From the sequence record DRR378314_251: a stretch of 64,000 nucleotides of DNA; one strand, 5' to 3'. Below are positions 24,876 to 53,664 of the stretch, piece by piece. Made by a program: the position numbers and the translations under genes. A model generated the notes under the pieces. It had not been told where the DNA came from, made no database searches, and saw nothing but the letters and a program-made list of their open reading frames with translations. Positions within the stretch are counted from its first letter, which is position 1, and the number at the start of each line of letters is the position of its first letter.

Positions 24876-25337
24876 CTACTCTGCCGGATCGTCGACAGCC
24901 GTATCGGTCACGATCTTCCAGACACCGTCTACCTTGCGCCACACCGTCACGTAGTTACCCGTTGTCTCCGGATCTCCATCAACGCTGAAACTTCCCCAGG
25001 TGACTCCCATATCGCCACTTGCAGACCCCATCGCACCGATCGGTTTCCAGTGAACAGGTGATGGCACCGTATCCAGTTGTCGCTCTGCCATGATCGCAGC
25101 CTCACCTGTGAGAAAGCCTTCGCCAGCTTCGAGCATGAACCCCTTGTCGAAATCCACGAACTTCTTCGAGGCAGCTTCATAACCGTGTTCCAGATTAAAC
25201 GCCTCATAGGCCATGTCCGCCTCCATTAGCTCCGCCTCAATCGTAGCCGGAGAGACAGGCGCACTGACGCACCCGACAATCGAAAGTACGGCACTGCCAA
25301 GGGCCATTGAACGAAGGGCTTTTGCGGTCTGTTTCAT
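24876..25337 (-). CDS. NTF2-like/DUF4440 lipoprotein
   Basis: Lipobox IVGC; SGDMGVTWG..GNYVTVWRKVDGVWKIVTD; AGGAG upstream of ATG 25337. Confidence 0.8.
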   Translation of the reverse strand: MKQTAKALRSMALGSAVLSIVGCVSAPVSPATIEAELMEADMAYEAFNLEHGYEAASKKFVDFDKGFMLEAGEGFLTGEAAIMAERQLDTVPSPVHWKPIGAMGSASGDMGVTWGSFSVDGDPETTGNYVTVWRKVDGVWKIVTDTAVDDPAE

Positions 25338-25409
25338 GAAGTTCTCCTGATTGCCGCGAAACTGTATCGCCGCCAGAAGGAGATCCACACTGCGTTTTAG
25401 GGCCTGAAC

Positions 25410-25426
25410 GGTGCGCATACATCACC
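25410..25426. promoter_or_regulatory. LysR-type operator 1 (GGTGC-N7-TCACC)
   Basis: T-N11-A dyad between divergent genes; GCATC half-site ends 21 bp downstream. Confidence 0.75.
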
Positions 25427-25497
25427 AGCCAATCGACAGTTTGCATCACTCAAGAACAAAATCCGGTGCTAGCCTCAAAGCCGGAGGAAAATAAATT

Positions 25498-28400
25498 ATG
25501 CGAATCCGTCACTTCATCCTCGCTGTCGCATGCAGTCTTCCGGGCGTTTTGTGCACAGCCAATGCCCAGACTAACGAGACAGAGACTGAACCGAAAGTCG
25601 TCACACTCGAGCTTACAGAAGGCACCTGGATGAGCCTGGATGTAAGTCCTGATGGCGAAACCATCGTCTTCGACCTGCTGAATGATATCTATTCGATGCC
25701 CTCCACTGGGGGCACGGCCATCGCAATTCACGATGGATCCGTGACCCAACGCAGCCCTCAATTCAGTCCTGACGGTCAGTTCATCACGTACCTGAGCGAT
25801 CAGAGCGGCGCAGACAATGTCTGGATATCGAAGGCCGACGGAACCGACGCTAGACAGATCACGCATGAAACACATGCCATGGTCGCCGGCCCGGCCTGGT
25901 CCTCTGATGGAAAGTCCATCGCAAGTGTAATTACCTATTCAGACATATTCCGTGTCCGAAATTCTGAAATTCACCTGTACGGCATTGATGACGGTTCAGA
26001 AGAAATTGTCGTACCTCCGCCGACGAGCGGAAAAGACGTACAGGAACCACGCTTCGCGCCGAATGGCCGTCACCTCTATTACACAGAGAGAATCGGCGGA
26101 GATCACTACGTTTACATGAACACAGGTTTGAAGAATTTCGCGATCAAGCGGTTGGATCTCGAAACCGGCGAAAGAAAGAAAGCCATTTCCGGTTTCGGGG
26201 GCGCCTCAACACCGCAGATCTCGCCGAATGGAAAATCCATCGCTTTCATCCGTCGCTTGGGCGCAAAGACAGTTCTGTTCGTAAAAGATCTGGAGTCCGG
26301 ATATGAAGAGCCGATCTATCAGGATCTAGGGCGCGACTTGCACGGAGATTACCTGCCACAGGAGCATTATTACCCCTCCTTCGACTGGTTTCCTGACAGC
26401 CATCACATTGCGATCTGGGCAAAGGGAAAGCTGCTGAAGATCGACACCCTGTCTGCTCTGGCGGAAGAGATACCGTTTAATCTGAAAGCGCGCCATGAAT
26501 TGCAACCAGCAATTCGGGTGAAGCAGGACCTCGCGCCAGACCAGGTTCAAGTCCGCACAATTCGCCAACTCGCCCCGAATCCGGACGGTAGCTCGATACT
26601 CTTCCGTGCAATGGGCAAGATCTGGGAAGTCGGGTCCAGCTCTCCTTCACGGCCTTCTCGCTTGACGAATTCCATGGCCATGGAATCTGAACCAACATGG
26701 TCCCCCGACGGAAAACAAATCGCATATGTGAGCTGGCAAGACCAAACCGGTAGCAAGTTGATCCTGCGGCATGCCGATACAGGCCAAGAGACGGTTCTTG
26801 CAGAAAGCCATGCGGTCATTCGAGAGCCGCAGTTCTCAAATTCTGGAGAACTGATCGCCTATCGGATCATGAGTCCCGACACAGCTTTCAACGCACCAGG
26901 GCCCGAGACAGGCATTTATCTCCTGAACCTGGCCGGAGGTAGTCCGGAATACCTGACGGAAGCCTCGGGCCTGTCAGTGTTCTCTCCCGATGATAGCAGA
27001 CTCTTCTTTCTTGGAGAGCCGTCCTCATACGCGAAACGATCATCTGTGTTGATGAGCATCACGCTCGACGGCAGCGACGTACAGGAACATGCCATTTCTG
27101 AAATGGCAGACATCCGGGACTTCTCCTTGAGTCCTGACCTGAAGTGGCTGGCGTTCAAGTCCAACAATCGCCCTTACGTCATGCCGTTCGACGTCAAGCC
27201 GGCCCCCGTAACCATCAACACGCCGGACAATGGCTCGGCTCGTCTGCTGAGTGATATTGGTGGATACGCTTTCGGATGGTCGAAAGACTCGTCCACACTC
27301 TTCTGGACGATGGGCGCAGAAATTCTTTCAACCACGCCTGCCGACAAGAGCGGCACGCCTCACTCCCTGACAATCAATATACAGCTGCCGACAGACAAGC
27401 CTGAAGGCATAGTTGCGTTCGTTGGCGGCAAGATCGTTCCGATCGAAGGCGATGTTATCAAGAACGGAACTGTTGTTGTTGAAGGAAACCGGATTGTCGC
27501 CGTCGGTCCGCGACGCAAGGTCAAGATTCCGAAAGACGCCACCCGGATCGACATCAAGGGCAAAGTCTTGATGCCTGGCTTCTTCGATGCGCATGGCCAT
27601 ATCGAATGTTGCTTCGACGCCGGCACTATGCCTCAGCAACACCCAACGCGTCTTGCCGCCCTCGCCTATGGCGTCACCACGAACTTCGATCCGTACTCAG
27701 AGGACCTTACTTCCTACGAAAGCGGTGAGATGACTATGACGGGAGAATTGGTCGGTCCGCGCTGGCTCAAATCTGGTCAGGTTGTTCACGGAGTGAAAGG
27801 ACGCACCGCTGGTGTGTATCACCCACTTGCCTCTTTGGATGATGCTCGAAACGTCCTGAAGCGCCGCAAAGCGCTCGGCCCGTCAATTCTGAAAAGCTAC
27901 AAGCTGTCGACTAGAGCTCAGCGTCAGCGACTTCTCCAGGCGGCGAGAGAATACGACTTCATGGTTGATGGCGAAGGCGCCGGACAATTCTACACAAACA
28001 TCGGGATGATCCTCGATGGACACACCAATCTTGAGCACAACCTTCCGGTTGCCACCTATTATGATGATCTTCAGCAGCTGATTGCTGCATCCGACGTCTC
28101 AATGACGCCAACACTGATCGTGACGTTCGGTGAGCTGTTTGGCGAAAATTACATCTACGAAAACGAAGACTCCTGGTCCCAGGACAAAGTCAAAGCCTTC
28201 ATTCCCGACGTAAACAATGCGTATAACCCTATCACGGGCGATAGTGGCACACCCCTGCATGTTCGCTGCATGCATTCGATCCATGTATCAGATGAAATCT
28301 ACGACATCGGATTCCGCTCAGTCGGTCGCTCCTTGACGAAACTGGCAAAAGCCGGCGCAACGGTGAATGTTGGCTCTCACGGTCAGGTTTCCGGGCTCGC

Positions 28401-28737
28401 CATGTACTGGGAGATGCTGCTCTTTGCGGAAAGCGGCATGGAACCGATGGAAATCCTGCGAGCCGCTACGATCAATGGCGCAAAGACCTACGGGCTTGAC
28501 CATCAACTCGGGTCAATCACCCCCGGCAAGCTCGCAGACCTCATTGTACTTGACGAGGATCCGACCGAGGACATCCGCAATGCCAACAGCGTTCGGTATA
28601 CAATGGTCAATGGGCGCCTCTACGATTCCCATACCATGAACGAAATCGGAAATTATAACCGTCCCCGGAGCAAATTCTATTGGGAAATGAAGCCAACAAA
28701 CGGAATAGATTGGAAATCCACATGGTCCGGCGAATAA
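25498..28737 (+). CDS. Secreted amidohydrolase with N-terminal TolB/PD40 beta-propellers (paralog 1)
   Basis: Signal peptide; repeated SPDG blades; PGFFDAHGH, KSY, EH, GSHGQ, GKLADL. Confidence 0.9.
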   Translation: MRIRHFILAVACSLPGVLCTANAQTNETETEPKVVTLELTEGTWMSLDVSPDGETIVFDLLNDIYSMPSTGGTAIAIHDGSVTQRSPQFSPDGQFITYLSDQSGADNVWISKADGTDARQITHETHAMVAGPAWSSDGKSIASVITYSDIFRVRNSEIHLYGIDDGSEEIVVPPPTSGKDVQEPRFAPNGRHLYYTERIGGDHYVYMNTGLKNFAIKRLDLETGERKKAISGFGGASTPQISPNGKSIAFIRRLGAKTVLFVKDLESGYEEPIYQDLGRDLHGDYLPQEHYYPSFDWFPDSHHIAIWAKGKLLKIDTLSALAEEIPFNLKARHELQPAIRVKQDLAPDQVQVRTIRQLAPNPDGSSILFRAMGKIWEVGSSSPSRPSRLTNSMAMESEPTWSPDGKQIAYVSWQDQTGSKLILRHADTGQETVLAESHAVIREPQFSNSGELIAYRIMSPDTAFNAPGPETGIYLLNLAGGSPEYLTEASGLSVFSPDDSRLFFLGEPSSYAKRSSVLMSITLDGSDVQEHAISEMADIRDFSLSPDLKWLAFKSNNRPYVMPFDVKPAPVTINTPDNGSARLLSDIGGYAFGWSKDSSTLFWTMGAEILSTTPADKSGTPHSLTINIQLPTDKPEGIVAFVGGKIVPIEGDVIKNGTVVVEGNRIVAVGPRRKVKIPKDATRIDIKGKVLMPGFFDAHGHIECCFDAGTMPQQHPTRLAALAYGVTTNFDPYSEDLTSYESGEMTMTGELVGPRWLKSGQVVHGVKGRTAGVYHPLASLDDARNVLKRRKALGPSILKSYKLSTRAQRQRLLQAAREYDFMVDGEGAGQFYTNIGMILDGHTNLEHNLPVATYYDDLQQLIAASDVSMTPTLIVTFGELFGENYIYENEDSWSQDKVKAFIPDVNNAYNPITGDSGTPLHVRCMHSIHVSDEIYDIGFRSVGRSLTKLAKAGATVNVGSHGQVSGLAMYWEMLLFAESGMEPMEILRAATINGAKTYGLDHQLGSITPGKLADLIVLDEDPTEDIRNANSVRYTMVNGRLYDSHTMNEIGNYNRPRSKFYWEMKPTNGIDWKSTWSGE

Positions 28738-29600
28738 TTTCAACTACGTGCTTGGCATTGATGGCGATGACAGTTTCCGCCTGTTCGCAACCCGCAGGTT
28801 CGCCTTCTGGTGCAGAAATGGTGGTTATACCTGCAGCCAGTTTCGAGATGGGCGAGACAATCGACTACGGATATGGAGAGATCGATGGACCCCGACACAC
28901 CGTCGATATTCAAAGGTCTTTTGCGTTAGCCAAGACAGAAGTGACGGTAGGCGAGTTCAGACAGTTCGTTGAAGCAACAGGGCACCTGTCCGAAGGCAAA
29001 TGCAACATCTACACAGACGAAAAATCCTGGCACATCGATCCTGACCGAAACTGGGAGCACCCCGGATTTGTGCAAGCCGAAGATCATCCTGTCGTCTGCG
29101 TTAGTTGGGAAGATACACAAGCATACGCATCCTGGCTGACGCAACAAACCGGGGAAGCGTATCGCCTACCGTCGGAAGCAGAATGGGAATACGTGGCGAC
29201 ATTTGGCGACATTGAAGGCGAGGACGGCGTCGTCGGGCACGACGAAGCAAATATCGGCTTGGTTGACTGCTGCGGCGGCAAAGCGGAAGGACGGGATGTC
29301 TGGATTGAAACCGCCCCCGTCGGGAGTTTTCCTTCCGACAAGTTCGGCATCCACGACATGCGAGGAAACGTCTGGGAGTGGCAAGCTGACTGTCATCAAG
29401 ACAACTATGTGGGCGCGCCTGTCGATGGCTCCGCACGCACAGAATGCGACACACCGGACAAACGCTCAATTCGTGGCGGCTCCTACGGCGATGCTGGCGA
29501 CTATCTGTCACCGAGATATCGACTGCCCGGACCTAAGGATCAGGGATATTTCACTGTTGGCTTCCGGTTGGCCCACGACGTTCGCGAACCGCAACGGTGA
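28722..29600 (+). CDS. FGE-sulfatase (SUMF1/PvdO-like) domain lipoprotein
   Basis: Lipobox VSAC; HPVVCVSWED, RLPSEAEWEY, DMRGNVWEW, RGGS, GFR; FGE catalytic Cys pair absent; start ATG 28722. Confidence 0.85.
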   Translation: MVRRIISTTCLALMAMTVSACSQPAGSPSGAEMVVIPAASFEMGETIDYGYGEIDGPRHTVDIQRSFALAKTEVTVGEFRQFVEATGHLSEGKCNIYTDEKSWHIDPDRNWEHPGFVQAEDHPVVCVSWEDTQAYASWLTQQTGEAYRLPSEAEWEYVATFGDIEGEDGVVGHDEANIGLVDCCGGKAEGRDVWIETAPVGSFPSDKFGIHDMRGNVWEWQADCHQDNYVGAPVDGSARTECDTPDKRSIRGGSYGDAGDYLSPRYRLPGPKDQGYFTVGFRLAHDVREPQR

Positions 29601-29612
29601 CCTGAGCGCACC
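29596..29612. promoter_or_regulatory. LysR-type operator 2 (GGTGA-N7-GCACC)
   Basis: 77 nt upstream of the NylC-like gene; GCATC at +21. Confidence 0.75.
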
Positions 29613-29689
29613 AGCACATCAATATATCGCATCTATGTCGGCAAAGCTGCTTTCACGTATGCTGGCCTCCAGAATCGAGGAACAAGATT

Positions 29690-31135
29690 ATGAACACCCG
29701 TACCAAGCTGAAGTGTAACCCCGTTCCCGCTATTGGAATGGCATTGGCAGCGACACTTATGACGGCTTGCGCGACCCTTCCTCAATCAGCGCTGGCAGAT
29801 ATGCCGCCCGTCGGTCAGGACGAACTTCCAGCCCTGATAAATGATGGCTTTGACAGCGAGACGGCGCTGACCTTCGATTGGCCGATGCTGGAGATTGGAA
29901 CGGGCCAGTACGAAGATGGGCCAACAGGCCTGACGGTTCTGAAATTTGGAAAAAAAGTGAACGCTGCCGTCGATTCTCGCGGTGGTGGACCAGGCACCGT
30001 CAACGCCAAATATCTGGAACTAGGATACAATCAGCCCGAACTCGACGCCATCGTCCTGTCTGGTGGCTCCTGGTATGGTCTGGAAGCGGTGACAGCCGCC
30101 AATACTGCGTTGCTCGATGACAAGTATCGTGGCGGTCGCTGGGACAATGTGGGCCTCGTTGTCGGTTCCATCATCTACGATTTCGGCGGTCGGCGCCTCA
30201 ACGAAATCTATCCCGACAAACGTCTTGCCCAACTGGCATTGAGGGCTGCAGAACCGGGCGTATTTCCAAATGGCGCCTATGGCGCAGGTCGTTCTGCCAT
30301 GAATGGCGGCATTTTCGGCTGCAACGCACGCTCCGGACAAGGCAGCGCGTTCCGCCAGATTGGTGATGTGAAGATTGCGGTATTCACCGTCGTCAACGCT
30401 CTTGGCACGGTGACCGACCGTGAAGGTAATGTCGTCGCTTGTCACAAGGGAAGCAACTGGCCGGAAAACCTGAAAGCGACAGATCTGATGCGGGCGGCAC
30501 CAGATAGCGTGCAGCCCGGCTGGAATGGCGACGAGGAGTCACCAGGCGCTGAGCGAAAGAACACAACGATCAGCGTTGTCGTTACCAACCGCTCAATGAC
30601 GCCAGCCGAGCTGCAACGACTTGCTGTTCAGGTACACACATCGATGGCGCGAGGTATTCAACCTTTCGCAAGCGAATTTGACGGTGATGTACTCTACGCT
30701 GTGTCGACGAATGAGGTGGAGACCGGCCCCGGCGAAACCATCCCGAGCATGGAGATCGGCGTCGCCGCGTCTGAACTGATGTGGGATGCCATCCTCGCCG
30801 CAGTGCCTGCGCATCAGGTAACTCAGCCAGACCCAGATCCGGAACTCGTTCTCCCAGCCCGCACGCTGGAAAAGTACGCCGGAACCTATCGCTTCAGCCA
30901 TCTGGCTGAATTAACGGTTAGCGTGGAGAATGGCGCGCTCGTCGCATCTGCAACGGGAGAGCGTGATGTCTTTCAGGTCAAAAAGGGCACTCCCCGTCCC
31001 CTCTTGGCCGCCACCCGAGACACATTCACTGTCGAGCGTGGCCGCTACCCGTTCAGCATTCAGTTTGCGGGTGACGAGATCATAATCAATCCAGGCCGCT
31101 GGCAGCAGACCGGATACCGCGTTTCGGCTGATTAG
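29690..31135 (+). CDS. NylC-like Ntn-hydrolase (peptidase S58/DmpA family) lipoprotein with extra C-terminal domain
   Basis: YEDGPTG, VDSRGG, YGLEA, IYDF, YPDK, GQGSAFR, N|TTIS autocleavage site, [26 protein letters not shown] are collinear with recalled NylC; lipobox MTAC. Confidence 0.85.
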
Positions 31136-31170
31136 ACGCTCAAGACACTCATAAATATCAGGACAGCAAA

Positions 31171-32349
31171 ATGACCAAGCACTCTGCCTTCAACTGGGCC
31201 GACGCCCTTTCGCTCGCTTCCGATCTGACTGAGGAAGAACGGTTTGTGCAAAAGACCGCTGCAGATTTTGCCGACAAACGCCTTCTGCCTGGAATTGTGG
31301 AAGCCAATCGGTCAGGTCATTTTGATCGCGAAATCATGCGGGAAATGGGCGCGCTCGGTCTGCTTGGGCCAACCCTGCCGGAAGAGTATGGCGGCGCGGC
31401 GGTCAGCCACGTAGCCTATGGTTTGGTCTCGCACGAAGTTGAAGCTGTTGATTCAGGCTACCGATCTGCCTTGAGCGTTCAATCCTCGCTCGTCATCCAC
31501 CCTATTCATGCCTATGGCGACGAACAACAACGCCAACGCTGGCTGCCTGGTCTTGTGTCAGGTGATCTCGTTGGCTGTTTCGGCCTGACTGAACCCGACC
31601 ACGGTTCGGACCCCGGCAATATGGCCACGCGGGCGGTAAAGACGGATGGCGGATACCGCCTGAACGGTGCAAAGATGTGGATCACGAACAGCCCGATCGC
31701 CGATGTCATGGTGGTCTGGGCGAAACTCGACGGAGTCATTCGCGGGTTTGTGCTTGAACGCGGCATGAGTGGCCTGTCGACGCCCGAAATCAAAGGTAAG
31801 CTCGCGCTGCGCGCATCCATCACCGGTGAAATTGTCATGGACGATGTGTTCGTCCCTGAAGAAAACCTGCTCCCGAACGCCCGTGGACTGTCAGGCCCGT
31901 TTGGCTGCTTGAACAAGGCACGTTTCGGAATTGCCTGGGGCGCACTCGGCGCGGCTCGCACCTGTTGGACCGCTGCGCGCGACTACACGCTGGATCGAAA
32001 GCAGTTTGGCCGCCCGCTCGCCGCGAACCAGCTGATACAACGCAAACTAGCTGACATGCAGACTGAAATTTCTATTGGTTTGCAAGCCTGTCTGAAGGTG
32101 GGCCGCCTGCTGGATACTCATCAGGCAACGCCGGAAATGGTTTCGCTGATCAAGCGCAATAGTGCTGGGAAGGCGCTGGAGATCGCCCGGACATCGCGCG
32201 ACATGCATGGTGGCAACGGTGTTTCGGATGAGTTCCACATCATGCGGCACATGTGCAATCTGGAAGCCGTGAATACCTATGAAGGCACTCACGACGTGCA
32301 CGCCCTCATTCTTGGGCGGGCTCAAACCGGTATCGCGGCTTTCAACTGA
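31171..32349 (+). CDS. gcdH: Glutaryl-CoA dehydrogenase
   Basis: [63 protein letters not shown]. Confidence 0.9.
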
Positions 32350-32350
32350 T

Positions 32351-33592
32351 ATGGCACAGGCACTCGCGGGTCTTCGTGTGTTGGATCTCAGCCGTGTGCT
32401 GGCAGGCCCCTGGGCCACACAGCTCTTGGGTGACCTCGGGGCTGAAATCATAAAGATTGAGCGCCCTGGTCGCGGCGACGACACACGCAGCTGGAGCCCT
32501 CCATTCCAGTATGGATCAGACCCAAACACCCGCGAAGCTTCCTACTTCTTGAGCGCAAACCGCAACAAGAAATCAGTGTGCGTGGATATCACACGAGTGG
32601 AAGGCCAGAATATCATCCGGCAACTGGCAAAGACCAGCGACGTTCTGATCGAGAATTTCAAGACGGGAAGCCTCGCCAAATATGGCCTCGATGCTGAAAC
32701 GCTCTGCGCCGAGAATCCCGGGTTGATCTATTGTTCAATTACCGGCTTCGGACAGACAGGCCCATATGCGAGCCAGCCGGGTTACGATCTGTTGATTCAG
32801 GCAATGGGCGGCTTGATGAGCATTACGGGCGTTCCAGACGGAGAACCGGGGGCCGGCCCGATGAAGGTCGGGGTGGCACTCGTCGATATCCTTACCGGTC
32901 TGTACGCCGCCAACGCCGTTCAGGCGGCGCTACGGCATCGCGACAAAACCGGCGAAGGGCAAGCAATCGACATCTCGCTTCTGGACAGCCTTGTCGCTGC
33001 CCTGGCCAACCAGTCCCAAGGCTTCCTTGCAACGGGCCAGAGCCCGTCCCGTATGGGGAACGCACACCCCAGCATCGCACCCTATGATGTGTTTAAAACC
33101 GGCGACGGACACATCGTGCTGGCGGTTGGCAATGACGACCAGTTTGAAGATCTCTGCAGCCGCCTCGGCCTCTCAGAGCTATCCAAGGATCCCCGCTTCC
33201 GGTCGAACGCCAATCGCGTGCAAAATCGCACGGTTCTCACCGACATTCTGCACAATACATTGCAGACCGCGACGACATCTCACTGGCTGGACACTCTGGA
33301 CGGATGCAAGGCTCCTGTAGGCCCTGTGAATAGAGTCGGTGACGTATTTGCAGACCCTCATATTCAGGCACGCAATACTCGGATTACGCTACCGCACTCC
33401 AGTCTGGGCGACGTGTCGGGCGTCGCCTTTCCAGCGCGCCTCAGTCGCACTCCGGCGGAGTATGTATCGGCTGCACCAATTTTAGGCGAACATACCCAAG
33501 ATGTACTCAAGACTTTACTTGGATACTCAGATGAAGCACTGAGCGCACTCGGCACCGATGGTGTGATCAACACCCCGTCCGAAACAGACTAA
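32351..33592 (+). CDS. CaiB/BaiF class III CoA-transferase (glutarate CoA-transferase-like)
   Basis: LAGLRVLDLSRVLAGP, GDDTR.W, NRNKKS, ALVDILTG; directly follows gcdH; start ATG 32351. Confidence 0.9.
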   Translation: MAQALAGLRVLDLSRVLAGPWATQLLGDLGAEIIKIERPGRGDDTRSWSPPFQYGSDPNTREASYFLSANRNKKSVCVDITRVEGQNIIRQLAKTSDVLIENFKTGSLAKYGLDAETLCAENPGLIYCSITGFGQTGPYASQPGYDLLIQAMGGLMSITGVPDGEPGAGPMKVGVALVDILTGLYAANAVQAALRHRDKTGEGQAIDISLLDSLVAALANQSQGFLATGQSPSRMGNAHPSIAPYDVFKTGDGHIVLAVGNDDQFEDLCSRLGLSELSKDPRFRSNANRVQNRTVLTDILHNTLQTATTSHWLDTLDGCKAPVGPVNRVGDVFADPHIQARNTRITLPHSSLGDVSGVAFPARLSRTPAEYVSAAPILGEHTQDVLKTLLGYSDEALSALGTDGVINTPSETD

Positions 33593-45436: not shown

Positions 45437-45453
45437 GGTGCCCTGCCCGCACC
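45437..45453. promoter_or_regulatory. LysR-type operator 5 (GGTGC-N7-GCACC)
   Basis: Perfect dyad in divergent region, 82 nt upstream of the PaiB gene. Confidence 0.8.
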
Positions 45454-45535
45454 AGTGGAGAGGCATTTCGCGCCTCACATCGTGCGTTCATGACAGGAAA
45501 GGTGGTAGGACAAATCAATAAGGAGCGCGATCAGA

Positions 45536-46180: not shown

Positions 46181-46205
46181 CCAGATGGTGATGTTTCCAC
46201 CCCTC

Positions 46206-46222
46206 GGTGCTGAAACCGCACC
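46206..46222. promoter_or_regulatory. LysR-type operator 6 (GGTGC-N7-GCACC)
   Basis: Perfect dyad 78 nt upstream of the aminotransferase; TCATC at +21. Confidence 0.8.
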
Positions 46223-46300
46223 GGGCCCATCGGTTTAGTCATCTTCTCCCAAATCGGGTGGCGATCCAACATGTGATCAAAGACATGAAAGGGACGCGCA

Positions 46301-47674
46301 ATGGCGATCGTACAACGAAACACGGCACAGTGGCAGGCACTCGATGCCTCGCATCACATCCATCCATTTTGTGATCCGAAATCACTGGCCGAACGCGGTG
46401 TGCGTGTCATTACCAGCGCTGACGGCTGCTATGTGACAGACAGTGACAACAATCGCATCCTGGATGGCATGGCCGGTCTATGGTGCGTGAATGTCGGCTA
46501 CGGTCGTCAGGAACTTGTCGATGTTGCCACCCAGCAAATGGAACGACTGCCGTTCTACAACTCCTTCTTTCAGAGCTCCACGCCGAGCCAGATCGAACTG
46601 GCCCAAAAGCTGTCTGAAGTTGCGCCTGGCAATCTGAACCATTTCTTCTTTGCGAATTCCGGGTCTGAAGCAAACGACACAGTAATCCGCATGGCTCGCC
46701 ACTACTGGCACGTTCGCGGAAAGCCGAAGAAATACGCCTTCATCGGTCGAAATCTTGGCTATCATGGCAGCACACTGGCGGCGACGAGCCTCGGCGGCAT
46801 GAAGCACATGCATGACATGGGCTCATCCACGCTTCCCGGCTTTGAGCATATCATGGAGCCCCACTGGTATGCTCACGGAGGGAATATGACCCCGGAGGAG
46901 TTCGGACTGCGCGCAGCACAAGCGCTTGAAGACAAGATCCTTGAGGTCGGTGCGGACAACATCGCCGCCTTCATCGGAGAACCTATCCAGGGTGCGGGCG
47001 GCGTCATCGATCCACCATCGACCTACTGGCCCGAGATTCAGCGCATCTGCCGCAAGCATGACATCCTGCTTGTATGTGACGAAGTCATCTGTGGCTTTGG
47101 GCGTCTGGGCGAATGGTTCGGATGTCAGTATTATGGTGTACAGCCTGACATCATGCCGATGGCGAAGGGCATGTCCTCAGGATACCTCCCTATTTCGGCT
47201 GTGGCCTTCAGCGATGAGATTTTTGAAACCCTCAATGAAGGCGGCCCGATCTCGCACGGCTATACTTATTCCGGGCATCCGGTCTCCTGCGCAGTTGCGC
47301 ATGCGAACATCAACATCATTGAGCGTGAAGGCCTCGTTGAGCGTGTCAAGGAAGACGTTGGCCCTTACTTGCACGAGCGCCTGCAGGAACTTGCTGCAAA
47401 ACACAAGATTATTGGCGAAGTCCGCGGCACAGGCTTGATTGCAGGCCTGCAACTCGTGAAGTCTCAGGAAGCCCGCGAACCGTTTACGGCCGAAGACAAC
47501 GCCGCCAACATTTGCCGCGATGCTTGCCTCGACAAGGGTCTGATCATGCGCGCGGTTGGTCAGTCGATGGTGATCTGTCCACCTCTCACGATCTCTCGCG
47601 AACAGATTGATGATATGATCCGTATGGCATCAGAAGGCTTGGCCGAAACATCTGCTCAGTTCGGAATTTCCTGA
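46301..47674 (+). CDS. Class III omega-amino acid/polyamine:pyruvate aminotransferase (SpuC-like)
   Basis: WQALDASHHIHPF, DGMAGLWCVNVGYGR, SGSEAND, DEVICGFGR, MAKG, HGYTYSGHP. Confidence 0.9.
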   Translation: MAIVQRNTAQWQALDASHHIHPFCDPKSLAERGVRVITSADGCYVTDSDNNRILDGMAGLWCVNVGYGRQELVDVATQQMERLPFYNSFFQSSTPSQIELAQKLSEVAPGNLNHFFFANSGSEANDTVIRMARHYWHVRGKPKKYAFIGRNLGYHGSTLAATSLGGMKHMHDMGSSTLPGFEHIMEPHWYAHGGNMTPEEFGLRAAQALEDKILEVGADNIAAFIGEPIQGAGGVIDPPSTYWPEIQRICRKHDILLVCDEVICGFGRLGEWFGCQYYGVQPDIMPMAKGMSSGYLPISAVAFSDEIFETLNEGGPISHGYTYSGHPVSCAVAHANINIIEREGLVERVKEDVGPYLHERLQELAAKHKIIGEVRGTGLIAGLQLVKSQEAREPFTAEDNAANICRDACLDKGLIMRAVGQSMVICPPLTISREQIDDMIRMASEGLAETSAQFGIS

Positions 47675-47675
47675 C

Positions 47676-49148
47676 ATGTCGGTCGATCTCGCACCTCCCT
47701 TGCCACAGACTGTTTCCTCCAACGCTCTGCTGAAACGGATTCTGCTTGAAACGCGGCTTGAACCAGCCGAGAACACATTCGATGTGCTCAACCCGGCCGA
47801 CGGTTCTATTGTCGCCCAGCTGCCGGATCTTGGTGCAGCAGAGACCGAACTGGCCGTTGAATACGCGCGGCAGGCTCAACCAGATTGGGCGTCCCGAACG
47901 GCGAAAGAACGCGGAGAAATTCTTCGCCGGTGGCATGACCTGATCCTGTCTAACGAACAAGAGTTAGGGGAAATCCTAACTCTCGAACAGGGGAAACCGC
48001 TTGCTGAGGCGCGCCGTGAGATCACCTTCAATGCGGGCTATATCGACTGGTTTGCCGAAGAAGCCAAACGCGCCTATGGCGATGTCATTCCGACCAGCGC
48101 CTCTAATCGCAGGCAAGTCGTCCTTAAACAGCCGATTGGTATCGTCGGCGCGATCACACCCTGGAACTTCCCCAGTGGAATGATTACGCGCAAGGCCGCA
48201 CCGGCTCTGGCAGCAGGCTGCGTAATAATCCTGAAGCCCTCCGATGAAACGCCTCTGTCCGCTCTTGCGCTCGAGTGCCTCGCGCGAGACGCGGGCTTCC
48301 CGGAAGGGGTCTTTCAAGTGATCCCGTCAAAAGACCCAGCACCGGTTGCAAACGTGCTGACGAGTCACCCACTTGTTCGGAAAGTCTCTTTCACGGGATC
48401 AACGCGTGTGGGCAAGTTGCTGATGCGGCAGAGCGCCGACACCATGAAACGCCTGTCTCTGGAGCTTGGAGGTAACGCGCCCTTCATTGTTTTTGAAGAC
48501 GCCGATATTGATGCCGCTGTCGCCGGCGCCATGGTTGCCAAGTTTCGCAACGCCGGGCAAACTTGCATTTGCGCAAACCGAATTCTTCTGCATACGGCAA
48601 TTCAGGACGAGTTCCTGTCCAAATTCCTCTCGGCTGCCGATGCCATGAATGTGACCGATGGATTCGATTCTTCTTGCGCAATGGGCCCGATGATCAACTC
48701 GGCTGCCAAGAACAAGGTGGCGGCCTTGGTGGACGACGCGCTAGCGAAAGGCGCGAAGCGCGCGACGCGCCGGCTGCCGGATAGTGACGGTACTTTTTTT
48801 CCGCCTACCATCCTGACTGGCGTGTCCGGTGATATGGATATCGCCCACACAGAGATATTCGGTCCGGTCGCACCTGTATTCACTTTTGATACGGATGCAG
48901 AAGCCATCGCCCTGGCAAACGACACGCCCTACGGTCTGGCTTCCTATTTCTGGACTCGGGACTATTCACGCGCCTGGCGCGTCTCAGAGCAATTGGAAGC
49001 CGGGATGATTGGCCTCAACGATGTGGCAATTTCCGGCGACTCCACACCGTTCGGCGGCATCAAGGAGTCAGGTGTCGGCCGAGAGGGCTCCCACTACGGT
49101 CTCGACGACTATCTGGAAATCAAATATGTCGCGATGGGGGGGATCTGA
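47676..49148 (+). CDS. NAD(P)-dependent succinate/glutarate-semialdehyde dehydrogenase (GabD/DavD-like)
   Basis: ITPWNFP, FTGST, LELGGNAP, FRNAGQTCIC, EIFGP, PFGGIKESG. Confidence 0.9.
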   Translation: MSVDLAPPLPQTVSSNALLKRILLETRLEPAENTFDVLNPADGSIVAQLPDLGAAETELAVEYARQAQPDWASRTAKERGEILRRWHDLILSNEQELGEILTLEQGKPLAEARREITFNAGYIDWFAEEAKRAYGDVIPTSASNRRQVVLKQPIGIVGAITPWNFPSGMITRKAAPALAAGCVIILKPSDETPLSALALECLARDAGFPEGVFQVIPSKDPAPVANVLTSHPLVRKVSFTGSTRVGKLLMRQSADTMKRLSLELGGNAPFIVFEDADIDAAVAGAMVAKFRNAGQTCICANRILLHTAIQDEFLSKFLSAADAMNVTDGFDSSCAMGPMINSAAKNKVAALVDDALAKGAKRATRRLPDSDGTFFPPTILTGVSGDMDIAHTEIFGPVAPVFTFDTDAEAIALANDTPYGLASYFWTRDYSRAWRVSEQLEAGMIGLNDVAISGDSTPFGGIKESGVGREGSHYGLDDYLEIKYVAMGGI

Positions 49149-50461
49149 TGATCCGGCCTCCCGTGTCTTTCTCCGCGCAAAATCTGAGATGGGCGTCTAT
49201 CACTCTGACTACGCTCATTCTCGCGGGATACTTGCCGGCATCCAGCGAAACACTGGGTGACGACGACACAGCCGCGATCATTGCTGAACTCCAGGAGATA
49301 ATTCGGGAACAAGATGCACGACTGGCCAGGCTGGAAGCCCAAATCGCTCAATCGCGGCCACACGATGTATCGCCAGTCATCCAGCCAATGGCTAATCCCG
49401 CTACCGCCCCAAATAATCTCCTGCTCAAGCCTGCTCAGCAAGGCACCTCCAAACTAAGCATCAATGGAGACCTTCGGCTCCGTTACGAGTACAACACGTC
49501 CGATGGCGACGCCCGCACGGACTCTCGCGGTGTGGCGCGAGGGCGTGTAGCAGCAATCTATACAGCGAACCCAACACTCGAATTCGGCGCCAGGCTCGTC
49601 ACCGGCGATCCGGATGATCCAAACTCCGCAGACGTATCTCTTTCTAATTTCAACGATGATTTGCAGGTCAGCCTGGACCAGATCTACGCCCGGAAAGTCT
49701 ATGGCGCTCTTACGCTTACTGGCGGCAAGTTCTCGAACCCCTTTCGCCGCACTGACCTTGTCTGGGACGGCGATGTGAACCCACAAGGGGTCGCCGGCCA
49801 ATATGATTTCGTTGATACCGAGACCAGCACCATCACAGGCCGCGCCCTATTCTTTCCGATTGAAAGATCCGTGGCGGCTGCTGACAGTACGGCATCAGGC
49901 CTCCAATTGACCCTTGACCAACAGTTTGGTGCGGGCTGGAGCATGGGCCTGGCGACTGGCTACTATGATTACGAGATCGAGGCCACTGATACGGCGAACA
50001 CAGGCGACACGCGCACCAACAGGCTCGACGGCGCTGGAGCCTATATCTCTGACTTTGACCTGTTCAATCTGATCGCCTCGATTACATATGACGGCCTTGG
50101 AGATCGTTGGCCTCTTCAACTCCAGGCCGATTATGTTCAGAATATCGGAGCTGACGACTTCAACACGGGCTATAATGTATCAGCGGCGCTTGGCCAATCT
50201 GCTGAAACCGGTGACTACCGCTTCAGTTATGGATATCATCAGGCGGAGGCCGATGCAGTCTTCGCGGCGTTTGCTCAAGACAACATATCATATGGCAGCA
50301 ACTATCTTCAGCACGCGGTGACCGCCTCTTACGTTCTGAACGATCACCTTACCCTGGATGCAGCGTTTTATGCATTCCGCGTCAAAGACATAGAACTGCT
50401 CCCACTGTCGACAGAAGATTGGCAGCAACGCCTGCGCCTGAATCTGATCGCCCGCTTCTAA
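49148..50461 (+). CDS. Putative outer-membrane porin
   Basis: Signal peptide, coiled coil, GDLRLRYE, GKFSNPF..LVWDGDVNPQG, terminal Phe. Confidence 0.75.
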   Translation: MIRPPVSFSAQNLRWASITLTTLILAGYLPASSETLGDDDTAAIIAELQEIIREQDARLARLEAQIAQSRPHDVSPVIQPMANPATAPNNLLLKPAQQGTSKLSINGDLRLRYEYNTSDGDARTDSRGVARGRVAAIYTANPTLEFGARLVTGDPDDPNSADVSLSNFNDDLQVSLDQIYARKVYGALTLTGGKFSNPFRRTDLVWDGDVNPQGVAGQYDFVDTETSTITGRALFFPIERSVAAADSTASGLQLTLDQQFGAGWSMGLATGYYDYEIEATDTANTGDTRTNRLDGAGAYISDFDLFNLIASITYDGLGDRWPLQLQADYVQNIGADDFNTGYNVSAALGQSAETGDYRFSYGYHQAEADAVFAAFAQDNISYGSNYLQHAVTASYVLNDHLTLDAAFYAFRVKDIELLPLSTEDWQQRLRLNLIARF

Positions 50462-50505
50462 CCTGCTTTTTTATCAACCGGCTGTTACTTCAAAGGATAG
50501 TTGAA

Positions 50506-51597
50506 TTGCGTATTGGTACCCCGAAAGAACTCAAGAACCGCGAATACCGTGTGGGGCTAACCCCGCAAGGCGCTCAGGAACTCATCCGTTCAGGACACTC
50601 AGTCTTTGTTGAAACTGGCGCTGGTGCGACGGTCGGATTTTCCGATGAGATATACGAATCCGTCGGCTGCACAATTTCTGCGTCTGCTGACGAATTGTTC
50701 GAAGACTCTGACATGATCATCAAGGTCAAGGAGCCACAGCCGGTCGAGATCGCCCGTCTGGAGCCTCGCCACACGCTGTTCACCTATCTTCACCTCGCTC
50801 CGGACCCGGAACAAACGCTGGGCCTTCTGAAGTCTGGTGCAACTTGTATCGCATATGAGACCGTGACTGACCGGTTTGGTCGTTTGCCTCTCCTTACTCC
50901 AATGAGCGAAGTGGCCGGTAGATTGTCCATCCAAGCCGGCGCCAAGTATCTCGAAATCTCGAATGGCGGCTCCGGGACTCTTCTTGGGGGCGTCACTGGT
51001 GTTGCACCCGGCAATGTTCTTGTCATTGGTGGTGGAGTCGCCGGGCGGAACGCGGCTGAAATGGCCGTCGGCCTCGGAGCGAATGTCACAATTCTGGATC
51101 GCTCGCTCGATCGGCTCCGCGAACTCGACATCATCTTTGGTGGCCGCGCCCGCTGCCTCTATTCAACCTCTGCGGCGATTGAGACAGCTCTGCAGACTGC
51201 AGACCTCGTGGTCGGCGCGGTGCTGCTTCCAGGCTCCGAAGCCCCGAAAGTGGTTTCAGCAGAACAAATTGCCATGATGAAACCCGGTTCGGTTGTTGTC
51301 GACATCGCCATCGACCAAGGCGGCTGTTTCGAAACCAGTCGTCCCACAACCCATGATGATCCGGTTTATGAAATTGGTGGTGTCATTCACTACTGTGTGA
51401 CGAATATGCCAGCCGCGGTCGCGCGCACATCAACCATCGCCCTGTCCAATGCCACACTGCCGTTTGCCATGGCACTTGCCAACAAAGGTACAGCGGAAGC
51501 AATTGCATCTGACCCTCACCTTGCGGGCGGTGTAAATGTGGCAGACGGAAAAATTGTTCATCCCGAAATCGTCGCAGCGATGACCGGGAAAATCTGA
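50506..51597 (+). CDS. ald: Alanine dehydrogenase
   Basis: RIGTPKELKNREYRV, KVKEP, FTYLHLA, PMSEVAG, DIAIDQGG, YCVTNMP; TTG start at 50506 after AAGGA. Confidence 0.94.
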   Translation: MRIGTPKELKNREYRVGLTPQGAQELIRSGHSVFVETGAGATVGFSDEIYESVGCTISASADELFEDSDMIIKVKEPQPVEIARLEPRHTLFTYLHLAPDPEQTLGLLKSGATCIAYETVTDRFGRLPLLTPMSEVAGRLSIQAGAKYLEISNGGSGTLLGGVTGVAPGNVLVIGGGVAGRNAAEMAVGLGANVTILDRSLDRLRELDIIFGGRARCLYSTSAAIETALQTADLVVGAVLLPGSEAPKVVSAEQIAMMKPGSVVVDIAIDQGGCFETSRPTTHDDPVYEIGGVIHYCVTNMPAAVARTSTIALSNATLPFAMALANKGTAEAIASDPHLAGGVNVADGKIVHPEIVAAMTGKI

Positions 51598-51622
51598 AAC
51601 ACTATATGAGGGAACACAGGAC

Positions 51623-52339
51623 ATGCGATCTGCATTGACTGCCGCAGCAATAGCAACCAGCGTCGCCCCCGCCGCTGAAGCGCAATCCCGCTCGGTCTTC
51701 GGTGAAGCGCGCATGTCCTCCTCTCTTCATGACCGCGGCGAACAACTCAGTGCAGAAACGCTTGAGCTTCTGCTGGGACTGGAGCAGTCCACCGCATTCG
51801 GCGCGGTCTACACGTCCATTTACCGCATCGACCCTATTGGCCCCACAGCAGGTGCCTTCGCATCTGAAACCGACTATTCGATCGGCGTCATCGTCGAAGA
51901 AGACACCTTCTCGGCAGACCTCTCCGCGAACTGGCTCACCTATCCAGGCAGTGAGGACGATTCGACACTGGAGTTGGCACTATCGATAGATATTGTTGGC
52001 ACCTTATCTCCAAACCTTTCAGCGTTCTATGATGCGCACACCAGTGACAAGGGATTTGAAGTGTCAGCAGGCCCCTTCGTTGAAATGGGAGCCTGGACGA
52101 CGAATTTGCGCGGCCGCGCGGGAATGGTCTCGATAGGAGATGGTTCCCCGAACCGCTCCTATGCAGGAATCGAAGTATCAAGCAGCCGCGCTGTTGCAGA
52201 CAATTGGGAGTTCGGCGTGCACGCATCCATTGATGCCGCAAACCGGGAAACGCTTTCAGCGAGTTTCAGGCAAGGCGAAATCGTTTCATTCGAACACCAA
52301 GGCGTTTCGGCCGGAATCTCACTCTCCTACACAAACTGA
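51623..52339 (+). CDS. Small beta-barrel outer-membrane protein (TorF-like)
   Basis: Signal peptide; RGEQLS, ETDY, TYPG motifs; alternating beta-strands. Confidence 0.55.
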   Translation: MRSALTAAAIATSVAPAAEAQSRSVFGEARMSSSLHDRGEQLSAETLELLLGLEQSTAFGAVYTSIYRIDPIGPTAGAFASETDYSIGVIVEEDTFSADLSANWLTYPGSEDDSTLELALSIDIVGTLSPNLSAFYDAHTSDKGFEVSAGPFVEMGAWTTNLRGRAGMVSIGDGSPNRSYAGIEVSSSRAVADNWEFGVHASIDAANRETLSASFRQGEIVSFEHQGVSAGISLSYTN

Positions 52340-52374
52340 GCGGCTACACTGCCGGAGCGTCTATTGCCCTCTCT

Positions 52375-52391
52375 GGTGCCTGACGGACACC
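52375..52391. promoter_or_regulatory. LysR-type operator 7 (GGTGC-N7-ACACC)
   Basis: 79 nt upstream of second NylB-like gene; degenerate second site GATGC-N7-TCCTC shifted by 21 bp. Confidence 0.72.
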
Positions 52392-52470
52392 ATTCGATGC
52401 GCTATTGTCCTCTTTCCAAAGAAATTTCTTGTGCCGCACTATAAGCAGATTGAAACAGAGGACGGTATCG

Positions 52471-53664
52471 ATGAAGAAAGTGTGGATGGGCGCGGGGGCA
52501 CTGATCATCGCAGGTGTCATTGGCTGGTGGATGATTGGTTCGGATTGGCGGCGTCTGGCCACAAATCTGCCGACAGACAAGAACATGCTGTTCTGGACGG
52601 TAGACCAGCGCGATGCAGCGTTCCGCATGCTGGATCGGCTCCCCTTCCTTGTGAAGGCGAGGCCAATCGAGGCAGGAACATCAGTCCGCGCACTGGAGAC
52701 GGGAGCCCCCCTCAATCTCGATTTTGACATTGACGCTTATGTGGAAGAGCAACGTCACTCAGCTGTCGTAATTCTGCACGACGGAAAAGTTCGTTACGAG
52801 AAATACAATCTGGGCTTCACGGACTCCGGCCGCTGGACCAGCCACTCTGTGGCCAAATCCATTACGTCCACTCTGGTCGGCGCCGCTATCCGTGACGGAT
52901 ACATTCAAAGCCTGAATGACCCTGTTTCCAACTATATCGGTGGCCTCAAGGGGTCCGCTTATGATGATGTCACTGTGGAGCAATTGTTGACCATGACATC
53001 GGGGGTCGCATGGAATGAAGACTACGACGATCCGAATTCAGATGTCGCAAAATTTGGAACGCATGAATCGAGTGACGGTCTCCCTGCTCTGGTAAGCTAT
53101 ATGAGCCAGCTCCCACGTGCTCATGCGGCAGGAGACGTGTGGAACTATTCAACTGGCGAAACCAATCTGATTGGCATTCTCGTCTCGGAGGCGACCGGAA
53201 AGCCGCTCGCCACATACCTGTCTGAAAAGATCTGGGCGCCCTATGGGATGCAGCAAGATGCCTCATGGTTGCTTAGCCCGGATGGTCAGGAAATCAGCGG
53301 GTGCTGCATTCAGGCCGCCACAAGAGACTTTGCGCGGTTTGGCCAGTTCATTCTGGAGAATGGCACAATCGACGGCATCTCTGTTGTGCCGGATGATTGG
53401 CTTGCCTCTGCCACGACATCCCGCGTTGCTACCGGCTATGACGGCGTGGCATATGGATATCAATGGTGGGTGTACGGAGAGGACGCCTTCGCTGCCATCG
53501 GGATCTTTGGCCAGGGAATCTACATCGATCGGAAGCGCAAACTGGTCATCGCATCAAACTCGAACTGGACGACGGCATTGGGCGGTAAGGACGGCGAAAA
53601 CCTCAGACGCCACCAATTCTACATGGACATCACGCGCGCAATTGATGCCGAGCCGTCCGAATAA
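52471..53664 (+). CDS. NylB-like serine hydrolase with N-terminal membrane anchor
   Basis: Hydrophobic N-terminus; SVAK, LLTMTSG, NYST, IGIFGQ; start ATG 52471. Confidence 0.87.
   Translation: MKKVWMGAGALIIAGVIGWWMIGSDWRRLATNLPTDKNMLFWTVDQRDAAFRMLDRLPFLVKARPIEAGTSVRALETGAPLNLDFDIDAYVEEQRHSAVVILHDGKVRYEKYNLGFTDSGRWTSHSVAKSITSTLVGAAIRDGYIQSLNDPVSNYIGGLKGSAYDDVTVEQLLTMTSGVAWNEDYDDPNSDVAKFGTHESSDGLPALVSYMSQLPRAHAAGDVWNYSTGETNLIGILVSEATGKPLATYLSEKIWAPYGMQQDASWLLSPDGQEISGCCIQAATRDFARFGQFILENGTIDGISVVPDDWLASATTSRVATGYDGVAYGYQWWVYGEDAFAAIGIFGQGIYIDRKRKLVIASNSNWTTALGGKDGENLRRHQFYMDITRAIDAEPSE

Follow-up and report, generated by a model that had tools for sequence, protein, structure and literature searches.

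In the nylon-6 oligomer pathway of Arthrobacter/Paenarthrobacter sp. KI72, the endo-hydrolase NylC and the dimer hydrolase NylB are followed by the aminotransferase NylD and the semialdehyde dehydrogenase NylE. In TonB-dependent nutrient loci, a TonB receptor is encoded together with hydrolases of the periplasm or the cell surface, a permease of the inner membrane, enzymes that complete the breakdown in the cytoplasm, and a dedicated regulator. What NylC- and NylB/PIB-1-type enzymes do in nature is a long-standing question; most studies treat them singly, as nylonases or as a weak carbapenemase. PIB-1 (PA5542) of Pseudomonas aeruginosa (structure 8rlj) is described as an enzyme of an atypical class C beta-lactamase fold with weak, metal-stimulated carbapenemase activity (bioRxiv 10.1101/2024.03.05.583521). 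The LysR regulator GcdR of Pseudomonas putida controls glutarate catabolism by glutaryl-CoA dehydrogenase (GcdH) and a CoA-transferase (PMC6667623). The Nyl4A hydrolases of polyamide-4 (poly-gamma-aminobutyric acid, poly-GABA) from Pseudoxanthomonas and Pseudoalteromonas contain a catalytic domain of the beta-lactamase fold, which their description compares with 8rlj and NylB (PMC13269358). The DNA analyzed here is a stretch of 64,000 nucleotides (nt) from the sequence record DRR378314_251, referred to below as the window. Its positions 24876-53664 contain an oligoamide-breakdown gene island of about 29 kb with 20 genes in about 10 transcription units, as determined from the open reading frame (ORF) listing and Pfam and NCBIfam scans; the carrier is a marine Hyphomonas.

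With a probability of roughly 0.6, we read this island as a self-contained, horizontally mobile catabolic regulon for the import and degradation of an aliphatic oligoamide, probably switched by the LysR-type regulator encoded within it. The native substrate would probably be a natural compound and not nylon; it may be a polyamide, an acyl-polyamine, or a siderophore. The genes, numbered g01-g20, are as follows.

24876-25418, minus strand: g01, small lipoprotein; weak DUF4440 match (Pfam E-value 6.6e-05, below the cutoff)
25498-28737, plus strand: g02, fusion of TolB/PD40 propellers with a metallo-amidohydrolase, 1079 aa, predicted periplasmic
28680-29600, plus strand: g03, PvdO-like lipoprotein of the FGE-sulfatase fold
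29690-31135, plus strand: g04, NylC-like Peptidase_S58 N-terminal nucleophile (Ntn) hydrolase, a lipoprotein with a C-terminal DUF3471
31171-32349, plus strand: g05, GcdH
32279-33592, plus strand: g06, class III CoA-transferase of the succinate-glutarate type
33779-35914, plus strand: g07, TonB-dependent outer-membrane receptor, 711 aa
36093-37016, minus strand: g08, right-handed beta-helix (NosD-like) lipoprotein
37013-38518, minus strand: g09, POT/PTR2 proton-coupled permease
38491-41859, minus strand: g10, second TolB-propeller/amidohydrolase fusion, ORF of 1122 aa; the true start is probably later
41993-43072, plus strand: g11, PepSY_TM inner-membrane protein of the FoxB family
43073-44182, plus strand: g12, GcvA-like LysR-type regulator
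44179-45384, minus strand: g13, PIB-1-like serine hydrolase of the class C beta-lactamase fold
45536-46180, plus strand: g14, PaiB-like FMN_bind_2 protein
46301-47674, plus strand: g15, SpuC/CV2025-type omega-amine:pyruvate transaminase (class III aminotransferase)
47676-49148, plus strand: g16, semialdehyde dehydrogenase similar to succinate-semialdehyde dehydrogenase (SSADH)
49148-50461, plus strand: g17, outer-membrane porin, Porin_5
50419-51597, plus strand: g18, alanine dehydrogenase
51623-52339, plus strand: g19, secreted protein of 238 aa with no assigned family
52405-53664, plus strand: g20, second PIB-1/NylB-like serine hydrolase with an N-terminal membrane anchor

The preliminary description of this stretch had listed five amide hydrolases of three folds, an omega-transaminase, a semialdehyde dehydrogenase, an alanine dehydrogenase, a class III CoA-transferase, a GcdH, a TonB receptor, a POT transporter, and two porins. 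All five hydrolases (g02, g04, g10, g13, and g20) and all of the other enzymes were recovered by profile or structure matches, and the receptor and the transporter by family matches. The porins were confirmed in part: g17 is one (Porin_5 E-value 1.6e-21, signal peptide, C-terminal Phe), whereas g19, which has a signal peptide, gave no match in the Pfam and NCBIfam scans. The feature-level likeness of g19 to Gcw_chp clusters (0.97) is a lead only, and this protein may be a small outer-membrane barrel. The list was also incomplete, in that it overlooked the LysR-type regulator g12 and five other conserved genes (g01, g03, g08, g11, and g14). Judging by their N-termini, g01-g04, g07, g08, g10, g17, and g19 are predicted to be exported (signal peptide or lipobox), and g20 is placed outside the cytoplasm by its membrane anchor, while no export signal is seen in g05, g06, g13-g16, and g18, which are predicted to be cytoplasmic. 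These predicted locations support the order from envelope to cytoplasm that had been suggested.

The genes are connected by a common operator. The exact palindrome GGTGC-N7-GCACC occurs in the window four times against 0.02 expected; with at most one mismatch, there are eight sites against 2.67 expected, and seven of these are intergenic within the cluster. A palindrome with one mismatch at 23816 is located inside a response-regulator gene and was taken as a chance match. When the sites are aligned, a further element (GCATCT or a close variant of it) can be noted exactly 16 nt downstream of the palindrome. The composite GGTGC-N7-GCACC-N16-GCATCT has eight matches against 0.06 expected, all in cluster promoters, and the two divergent promoters, at 41.9 kb and 45.4 kb, hold it on both strands. 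Each transcription unit of the cluster is preceded by an operator site, and the site centres are 80-97 nt upstream of the starts of g02, g04, g07, g11, g14, g15, and g20. The following sites were found.

25410-25426, no strand assigned: operator with one mismatch between g01 and g02, with GCATCA at +16
29596-29634, plus strand: composite operator with one mismatch, upstream of the g04-g05-g06 unit
33677-33715, plus strand: exact composite operator upstream of the TonB receptor gene g07
41866-41926, no strand assigned: two-sided composite operator with an exact palindrome between the g10-g09-g08 and g11-g12 units, the hexamer being at +16 on both strands
45415-45475, no strand assigned: two-sided composite operator between g13 and g14
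46206-46244, plus strand: exact composite operator upstream of the g15-g18 unit
52375-52413, plus strand: composite operator with one mismatch, upstream of g20

The counts and the position of all composite sites in cluster promoters support the proposal that the genes share one operator and are regulated together. LysR-type regulators usually bind a T-N11-A dyad and a promoter-proximal half-site. In the palindrome found here, T3 and A15 are 11 nt apart and form such a T-N11-A box. The g12 protein matches HTH_1 (58 bits) and LysR_substrate (74 bits), and its best NCBIfam match is GcvA (PRK11139, 191.7 bits against a cutoff of 288). Its gene is inside the cluster, 3' of one of the operator sites, and sites are also located upstream of, or divergent from, the g12 orthologues.

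A scan with g04, one genome being taken per species, yielded 29 loci, in which the window proteins were searched for by tblastn within 10 kb of the S58 gene. The TonB receptor was found in 22 of the 29 loci, the POT permease in 21, and the serine hydrolase in 14. The LysR-type regulator, the propeller-amidohydrolase, and the beta-helix protein were present in 12 loci each, and the regulator was also found beyond this flank in L060 and L062 (80-85% identity). Less frequent were the FGE-like protein (7/29, paired with the amidohydrolase or the S58 gene), PaiB (6/29, adjoining the hydrolase and transaminase genes), PepSY_TM (6/29), and g01, which is syntenic in 4/29; the last of these encodes a signal sequence followed by Cys and is divergent from g02. 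We regard the S58 hydrolase, receptor, POT permease, LysR-type regulator, serine hydrolase, PaiB, and transaminase as the core of the system. The carriers include Hyphomonas and Henriciella (Hyphomonadaceae), Pelagerythrobacter, Altererythrobacter, Sphingopyxis, and Pacificimonas (Sphingomonadales), a metagenome-assembled genome (MAG) labelled Phenylobacterium, Steroidobacter, Cellvibrionaceae including Pseudoteredinibacter, and several unclassified MAGs. Gene order is shuffled between carriers of four or more families. Two longer Hyphomonadaceae stretches, L060 and L062, have g09 to g18 in the order of the window, while the L061 stretch spans g14 to g19 only; g19 is syntenic in L061 and L062. 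Six loci (L036, L038-L041, and L043; 42-59% identity) contain the S58 gene without the cluster. Co-conservation, which had been proposed as the test of a single system along with a synteny search, is observed across families and classes, with rearrangement.

The operator is conserved together with the genes. The 29 loci contain 44 exact palindromes, 37 of them in cluster spans (316 kb) and seven outside (221 kb); 35 of the 37 fall between matched genes. The GCATCT hexamer is at +16 in 28 of 40 sites and at other offsets (8-25) in 0-2 of 40; this count excludes L017, a near-duplicate of L016, and related loci are not independent. Ten exact sites fall at most 400 nt upstream of the g07 receptor orthologue. 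Two of the sites with one mismatch in the window have exact counterparts: the site between g01 and g02 in L018 and L019, and the site of the g04 unit in L016-L018. Genome-wide, 7 of the 11 exact sites of the carrier genome G002 are on the cluster contig (21-kb span), as are 5 of 7 in G004 (17 kb) and 3 of 10 in G003. A sequence that matches or nearly matches the operator palindrome recurs within the POT coding region of many loci (for example, L018 18166, L023 14355, and L016 18200); it was set aside, as it most likely reflects conservation of the encoded peptide. One and the same exact palindrome, GGTGCATCTTCAGCACC, is present away from the cluster in G002 (C20:20483), G003 (C14:916821), and G004 (C5:338222), as well as in the island-free genome G001 (C3:89647); it may belong to a conserved coding region or be an unrelated site.

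The island is patchy and horizontally spread. G001, a genome of the same species, has 97-100% DNA identity with the window on both sides, but is without positions 29634-59175, that is, g04-g20, a set of ECF sigma factor, FecR, and TonB transducer genes located to the right of the cluster, and the 5' part of the gene for a receptor of 919 aa. The left break, 29634, coincides exactly with the end of the g04 composite operator. The contigs of G001 end 28-29 nt past both breakpoints, the contigs concerned being as follows.

window breaks 29634 and 59175, G001 contigs: C62 (end), C45 (start), C9, C15, C46

The 28-mer of the left break recurs at four contig ends, and this suggests a multicopy insertion sequence, with a deletion or replacement linked to it. 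Among 151 genomes of the family, the S58 gene is present in four, two of them among the 28 of the genus and two among the seven of a second genus. A transaminase with at least 61% identity is found in exactly the same four genomes, on the same contig and 12-17 kb from the S58 gene; three further genomes hold only a relative with 53% identity. Thus, the unit is accessory, moves as a whole, and is present across classes.

The hydrolase with the clearest affiliation is g04. Its best solved relative is NylC (5xyt, E-value 5.8e-58, 200 bits, residues 58-371), and its Peptidase_S58 score is 88 bits, above the cutoff of 23.9. The DGD motif, which we take to be a functional motif of NylC, is aligned between the two proteins, and N219 is conserved. 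The g04 sequence KNTTIS aligns with GNTTIS of NylC (residues 265-270), so that the self-cleavage site N266/T267 is kept; T267 is reported as the catalytic residue of NylC (PMC10858056). The g04 protein has 481 aa, with a signal sequence, a lipobox-like Cys, and a DUF3471 at residues of about 389-448, whereas NylC is a single-domain protein of about 355 aa. Pfam describes DUF3471, which is fused here to an S58 hydrolase, as a domain of unknown function. Presumably, this domain is usually joined to beta-lactamase-fold proteins, and it may be a substrate-binding module common to S58 and beta-lactamase-fold hydrolases.

The two serine hydrolases had been called NylB-like. The fold (Pfam Beta-lactamase, 130 bits for g13 and 131 bits for g20) and the catalytic motifs agree with this, SMAK (SxxK) of g13 being aligned to SVSK of NylB and the Tyr of WNYST to FQYCS. 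However, the best solved relative of both is PIB-1 (8rlj; E-value 1.1e-89 and 304 bits for g13, 6.1e-72 and 246 bits for g20), while NylB matches at about 1e-27 and 4e-32, respectively, with about 97-116 bits; thus, by sequence, the NylB-like name is a loose label. The identity of g20 and g13 is 38.6%, and inspection of the N-terminus of g13 revealed no signal peptide. The two predicted metallo-amidohydrolases are also present. In g02, matches to PD40, DPPIV_N, and Amidohydro_1/3 follow a signal peptide; the HGH motif is at residue 699 in g02 and 739 in g10, and the two proteins are 42.6% identical. Their amidohydrolase domains, however, resemble peptide hydrolases of the prolidase and arginine carboxypeptidase types.

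The predicted cytoplasmic enzymes gave the following matches. The transaminase g15 scores 740.3 bits on the NCBIfam model PRK07480 (cutoff 510), its solved matches including 5ti8 (6e-180) and the polyamine:pyruvate transaminase 9j4z (1e-168). The g16 protein matches Aldedh with an E-value of 5e-164, and g18 scores 476 bits on TIGR00518 (cutoff 392). The g05 sequence matches the solved GcdHs 3eom, 3gnc, and 3d6b at about 8e-169 (residues 5-391) and human GcdH, 1sir, at 1e-162, and on these grounds is judged to be a true glutaryl-CoA dehydrogenase. The CoA-transferase g06 (CoA_transf_3, E-value 3e-130; NF052585, 494 bits, below the cutoff of 750) probably has its true start near 32351. The g05 start is 36 nt past the end of g04 and the likely g06 start is 2 nt past g05, and in Hyphomonadaceae both genes appear to be co-transcribed with the S58 gene. 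In G002-G004, the cluster copy is the only GcdH found (E-value 1e-80 or better), and no GcdH was found in G001, which is 99% complete. Because of the sole copy, its lack in G001, and the apparent co-transcription, the sequence data argue that the pathway of Hyphomonadaceae ends in glutarate and point to a C5 monomer, such as 5-aminovalerate or cadaverine. In five carriers of other lineages, GcdH is encoded outside the cluster. The glutaryl-CoA branch is a lineage-specific addition in Hyphomonadaceae. The complete pathway from the envelope to CoA that had been suggested is, therefore, sustained as to the families, which parallel NylC, NylB, NylD, and NylE together with the glutarate route, but its CoA steps are clustered only in this family.

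As for the envelope proteins, the receptor g07 matches Plug and TonB_dep_Rec_b-barrel; the nearest solved receptor is FyuA (6e-26), and FoxA is matched over the plug domain only (1.1e-10; FoxA model 44 bits against a cutoff of 1300). The permease g09 is assigned by PTR2 (1e-43) and TIGR00924 (243 bits against 130). The accessory genes encode g03 (Pfam FGE-sulfatase, 1.4e-51; PvdO model, 163 bits, below the cutoff of 500), g08 (Beta_helix, 9e-12), g11 (Pfam PepSY_TM, 1e-38; 7abw matched at 2.7e-08), and g14 (Pfam FMN_bind_2, 2e-46).

Based on the protein families and predicted locations, the following order of events can be proposed. An amide-linked aliphatic oligomer would cross the outer membrane through the TonB receptor g07, and small pieces through the porin g17. 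In the periplasm, the NylC-like lipoprotein g04 would cleave the oligomer internally, and the propeller-gated metallo-amidohydrolases g02 and g10 and the anchored serine hydrolase g20 would trim the products. The permease g09 would take up short fragments that end in an amine on one side and in a carboxylate on the other; POT carriers accept omega-amino fatty acids. In the cytoplasm, g13 would release monomers, g15 would transfer the terminal amine to pyruvate, and g18 would recycle pyruvate and liberate ammonium. The SSADH-like g16 would oxidize the product to a dicarboxylate, which in Hyphomonadaceae would be glutarate, activated by g06 and oxidized by g05.

Several observations weigh against this interpretation. 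The assignment of g12 as the operator-binding protein is presumptive. In the sigma-70 scan of 24800-42100, eight promoter-like sites were found against 10.2 expected, which is the level of chance, and in 42100-54000, 11 sites against 5.9 expected (standard deviation 2.3); a single site, 25433-25462, adjoins an operator, and no promoter is placed by the scan. Contigs from the RNA libraries X16, X17, and X18 cover 27, 25, and 17 of the 30 bins of 29001-49000 at low depth, but they are unable to show transcription, strand, or co-induction, and DNA carry-over is possible. The transaminase is within 10 kb of the S58 gene in 7/29 loci, a count limited by the flank length, and GcdH and the CoA-transferase belong to the cluster in 5/29 loci each, all in Hyphomonadaceae. 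The idea that GcdH is a distant member of the regulon in other carriers was rejected, since an operator was found at most 1.5 kb upstream of the gene at 0/8 loci. The g16 score on the SSADH model TIGR01780 (634.2 bits) is just under the cutoff of 646.35. Lys189 of NylC, presumably a helper residue, is replaced by Gly in g04, although this position is near a stretch of lower alignment confidence.

Every hydrolase family of the cluster also includes ordinary peptide or beta-lactam hydrolases, and an ordinary peptide-scavenging locus, with oligopeptide import, peptidases, and disposal of amino acids such as lysine-derived carbon, is, therefore, a possible, though unlikely, explanation. POT permeases normally carry di- and tripeptides, and the S58 family also contains the aminopeptidases DmpA and BapA. 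The L-aminopeptidase/D-esterase 9yys matches g04 (3.6e-17), the solved structures closest to the amidohydrolase domains are those of phenylurea hydrolase B, prolidases, and the arginine carboxypeptidase Cc2672, and the propellers are DPP-IV/TolB-like. In contrast, 9yys reaches 65 bits with g04 and the NylC endo-hydrolases 200 bits, the SpuC-type transaminase and SSADH-like dehydrogenase that travel with the cluster act on terminal amines and not on alpha-amino acids, and no lysine-specific entry enzyme was identified among the cluster genes in the Pfam and NCBIfam scans. The carbapenem hydrolysis reported for PIB-1, the nearest characterized relative of g13 and g20, together with the GcvA grouping of the regulator, could instead suggest a beta-lactam resistance unit with an AmpR-like LysR protein and a class-C-like enzyme, or else the neighbourhood could be due to chance; both ideas seem extremely improbable. 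A single operator serves all units, the genes co-occur across taxa, g12 and g13 are convergent, unlike the divergent ampR-ampC pair, and g12 scores 72 bits on the model of the beta-lactamase regulator PenR with a cutoff of 625.

Two other rival readings concern the substrate. A recent adaptation to synthetic nylon oligomers at sea, for example from fishing gear or in plastic-dwelling communities, would fit the homology to NylC and NylB and the presence of the stretch in many marine metagenome runs (19 rows, 11 studies). Nevertheless, its probability is close to negligible, because the orthologues across orders and classes are 54-69% identical, a divergence presumably far older than nylon manufacture; the gene order is shuffled and the composite operator is kept. 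It is also improbable that a foreign hydroxamate siderophore of the desferrioxamine type is dismantled mainly for iron, the carbon route being secondary. The siderophore idea is consistent with the small receptor (711 aa), for which the siderophore receptor model is the best NCBIfam subfamily (144 bits, below the cutoff), with the FoxB-family g11 in one operon with the regulator, and with the conserved PvdO-like g03. In its favour, too, a MOSC protein and an acylase of the penicillin-amidase type are encoded in the distant variant cluster of L028; MOSC proteins reduce N-hydroxy compounds. The enzyme degrading desferrioxamine B is reported to be serine-peptidase-like, and its gene is not named (PMC5805875). 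However, control seems to be by a LysR operator, the match of the receptor to FoxA is confined to the plug, PepSY_TM is present in 6/29 loci only, and a complete route of carbon and nitrogen disposal favours nutrition over iron.

The boldest version of the oligoamide reading treats the island as the genetic basis for the catabolism of natural "nylon-like" oligoamides, with desferrioxamine or bisucaberin, hydroxamate siderophores of cadaverine and succinate, serving as a source of carbon and nitrogen. We consider it speculative and, as a whole, unlikely. In this scenario, the TonB receptor and the FoxB-like PepSY_TM protein would bring the compound in and remove its iron, the NylC-like and PIB-1-like hydrolases would cut the amides, the POT permease would import amine-to-carboxylate fragments, and the carbon of the C5 diamine would leave through 5-aminovalerate, glutarate, and GcdH. 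If this were true, the nylonases NylC and NylB would be offshoots of a natural system.

The left flank (window 21171-24013) contains an H-NOX gene, a PAS hybrid histidine kinase, and a LuxR-type response regulator, without an operator; this set resembles a nitric-oxide sensing module. The right flank (window 53810-62370) encodes an ECF (extracytoplasmic function) sigma factor, a FecR anti-sigma factor, and an STN-domain TonB transducer of 1008 aa; next come the genes of a second TonB receptor (919 aa) and of a GDPD phosphodiesterase. The ECF/FecR/TonB set is a separate uptake system with cell-surface signalling, and it is operator-free as well. Both flanks are unrelated to the cluster and lack the operator; therefore, the boundaries 24876-53664 proposed in the preliminary description are correct. 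The only convincing terminator candidate in the promoter and terminator scan is the following.

35983-36009, plus strand: terminator-like hairpin 3' of g07, with 11 pairs, eight of them G-C, and then a T run

Several distant loci deserve mention. In L029 (7254-20761), a contig labelled as a Flavobacteriaceae MAG, there is a proteobacterial-type cluster with the same operator and an S58 protein of 61% identity, which can be explained either by a binning error or by transfer across phyla. L028 (5735-19997) and L030, from unclassified Pseudomonadota MAGs, contain a variant cluster with the operator arm GCAAC, in which an amidase-signature enzyme, a protein with a MOSC domain, and an Ntn hydrolase of the penicillin-amidase type are encoded in addition. 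Ten extra ORFs of distant loci were scanned, and four have no Pfam family; the others encode an amidase-signature enzyme, MOSC, penicillin amidase, a second PepSY_TM, a pyridine-nucleotide oxidoreductase, and DUF2961. They are suggestive, but do not decide the substrate.

The presence of NylC and NylB/PIB-1 homologues in one conserved, operator-defined regulon with transporters and a carbon and nitrogen route makes their natural role testable. The regulator and its seven sites can be used as a reporter for inducer screening, and cultivable carriers are available: Hyphomonas sp. L-53-1-40, Henriciella pelagia, Sphingopyxis sp. R3-92, Pelagerythrobacter spp., Pacificimonas aurantium, and Steroidobacter agaridevorans. 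The island-free genome of the same species is a natural control, and the cluster offers NylC-type enzymes that are secreted and have an additional domain.

No account of this gene arrangement was found in the literature on NylC homologues, PIB-1/PA5542, and siderophore degradation, supplementary tables being outside the scope of the search; the papers on PIB-1/PA5542 dealt with resistance only. When compared with the KI72 pathway, the island has the same succession of an Ntn endo-amidase, a beta-lactamase-fold exo-amidase, an omega-transaminase, and a semialdehyde dehydrogenase. It differs in that its S58 enzyme is a secreted lipoprotein with DUF3471 and its serine hydrolases are nearer to PIB-1, and it adds the TonB receptor, porin, POT permease, two propeller-amidohydrolases, alanine dehydrogenase, GcdH, and CoA-transferase under one LysR operator; since the cluster is conserved across classes, it is presumably older than nylon. 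Among solved structures, PIB-1 comes closest to g13 and g20, and it shares the SxxK motif and the Tyr, whereas the cluster homologues are part of a catabolic regulon with a transaminase. The GcdR system likewise combines GcdH and a class III CoA-transferase under a LysR-type regulator, but in the island this pair comes behind the S58 hydrolase as a branch of a regulon of 20 genes, in Hyphomonadaceae only.

The SpuC/CV2025 routes are similar in the transaminase (g15 matches 9j4z, 6hx9, and 4a6r with E-values of 1e-168 to 3e-176), and the adjacent alanine dehydrogenase fits pyruvate as the acceptor; g16, in contrast, is SSADH-like (634 bits against 412 on aminobutyraldehyde dehydrogenase), and, therefore, omega-amino acids fit better than diamines. 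The Nyl4A enzymes yield GABA oligomers, which a transaminase and an SSADH could finish, but they are extracellular and multi-domain, with a carbohydrate-binding-like domain, and the available sections of their description contain no comparable regulon. Finally, polysaccharide-utilisation-like loci have the same set of receptor, hydrolases, permease, finishing enzymes, and regulator; unlike them, the island has an amide-linked and not a glycosidic target, no SusD-like partner, and a regulator of the LysR type. This analogy suggests that amide-linked oligomers are utilised by marine bacteria in a TonB-dependent manner, as polysaccharides are, and that the island is a LysR-controlled utilisation regulon for such oligomers, built around NylC- and PIB-1-type enzymes.

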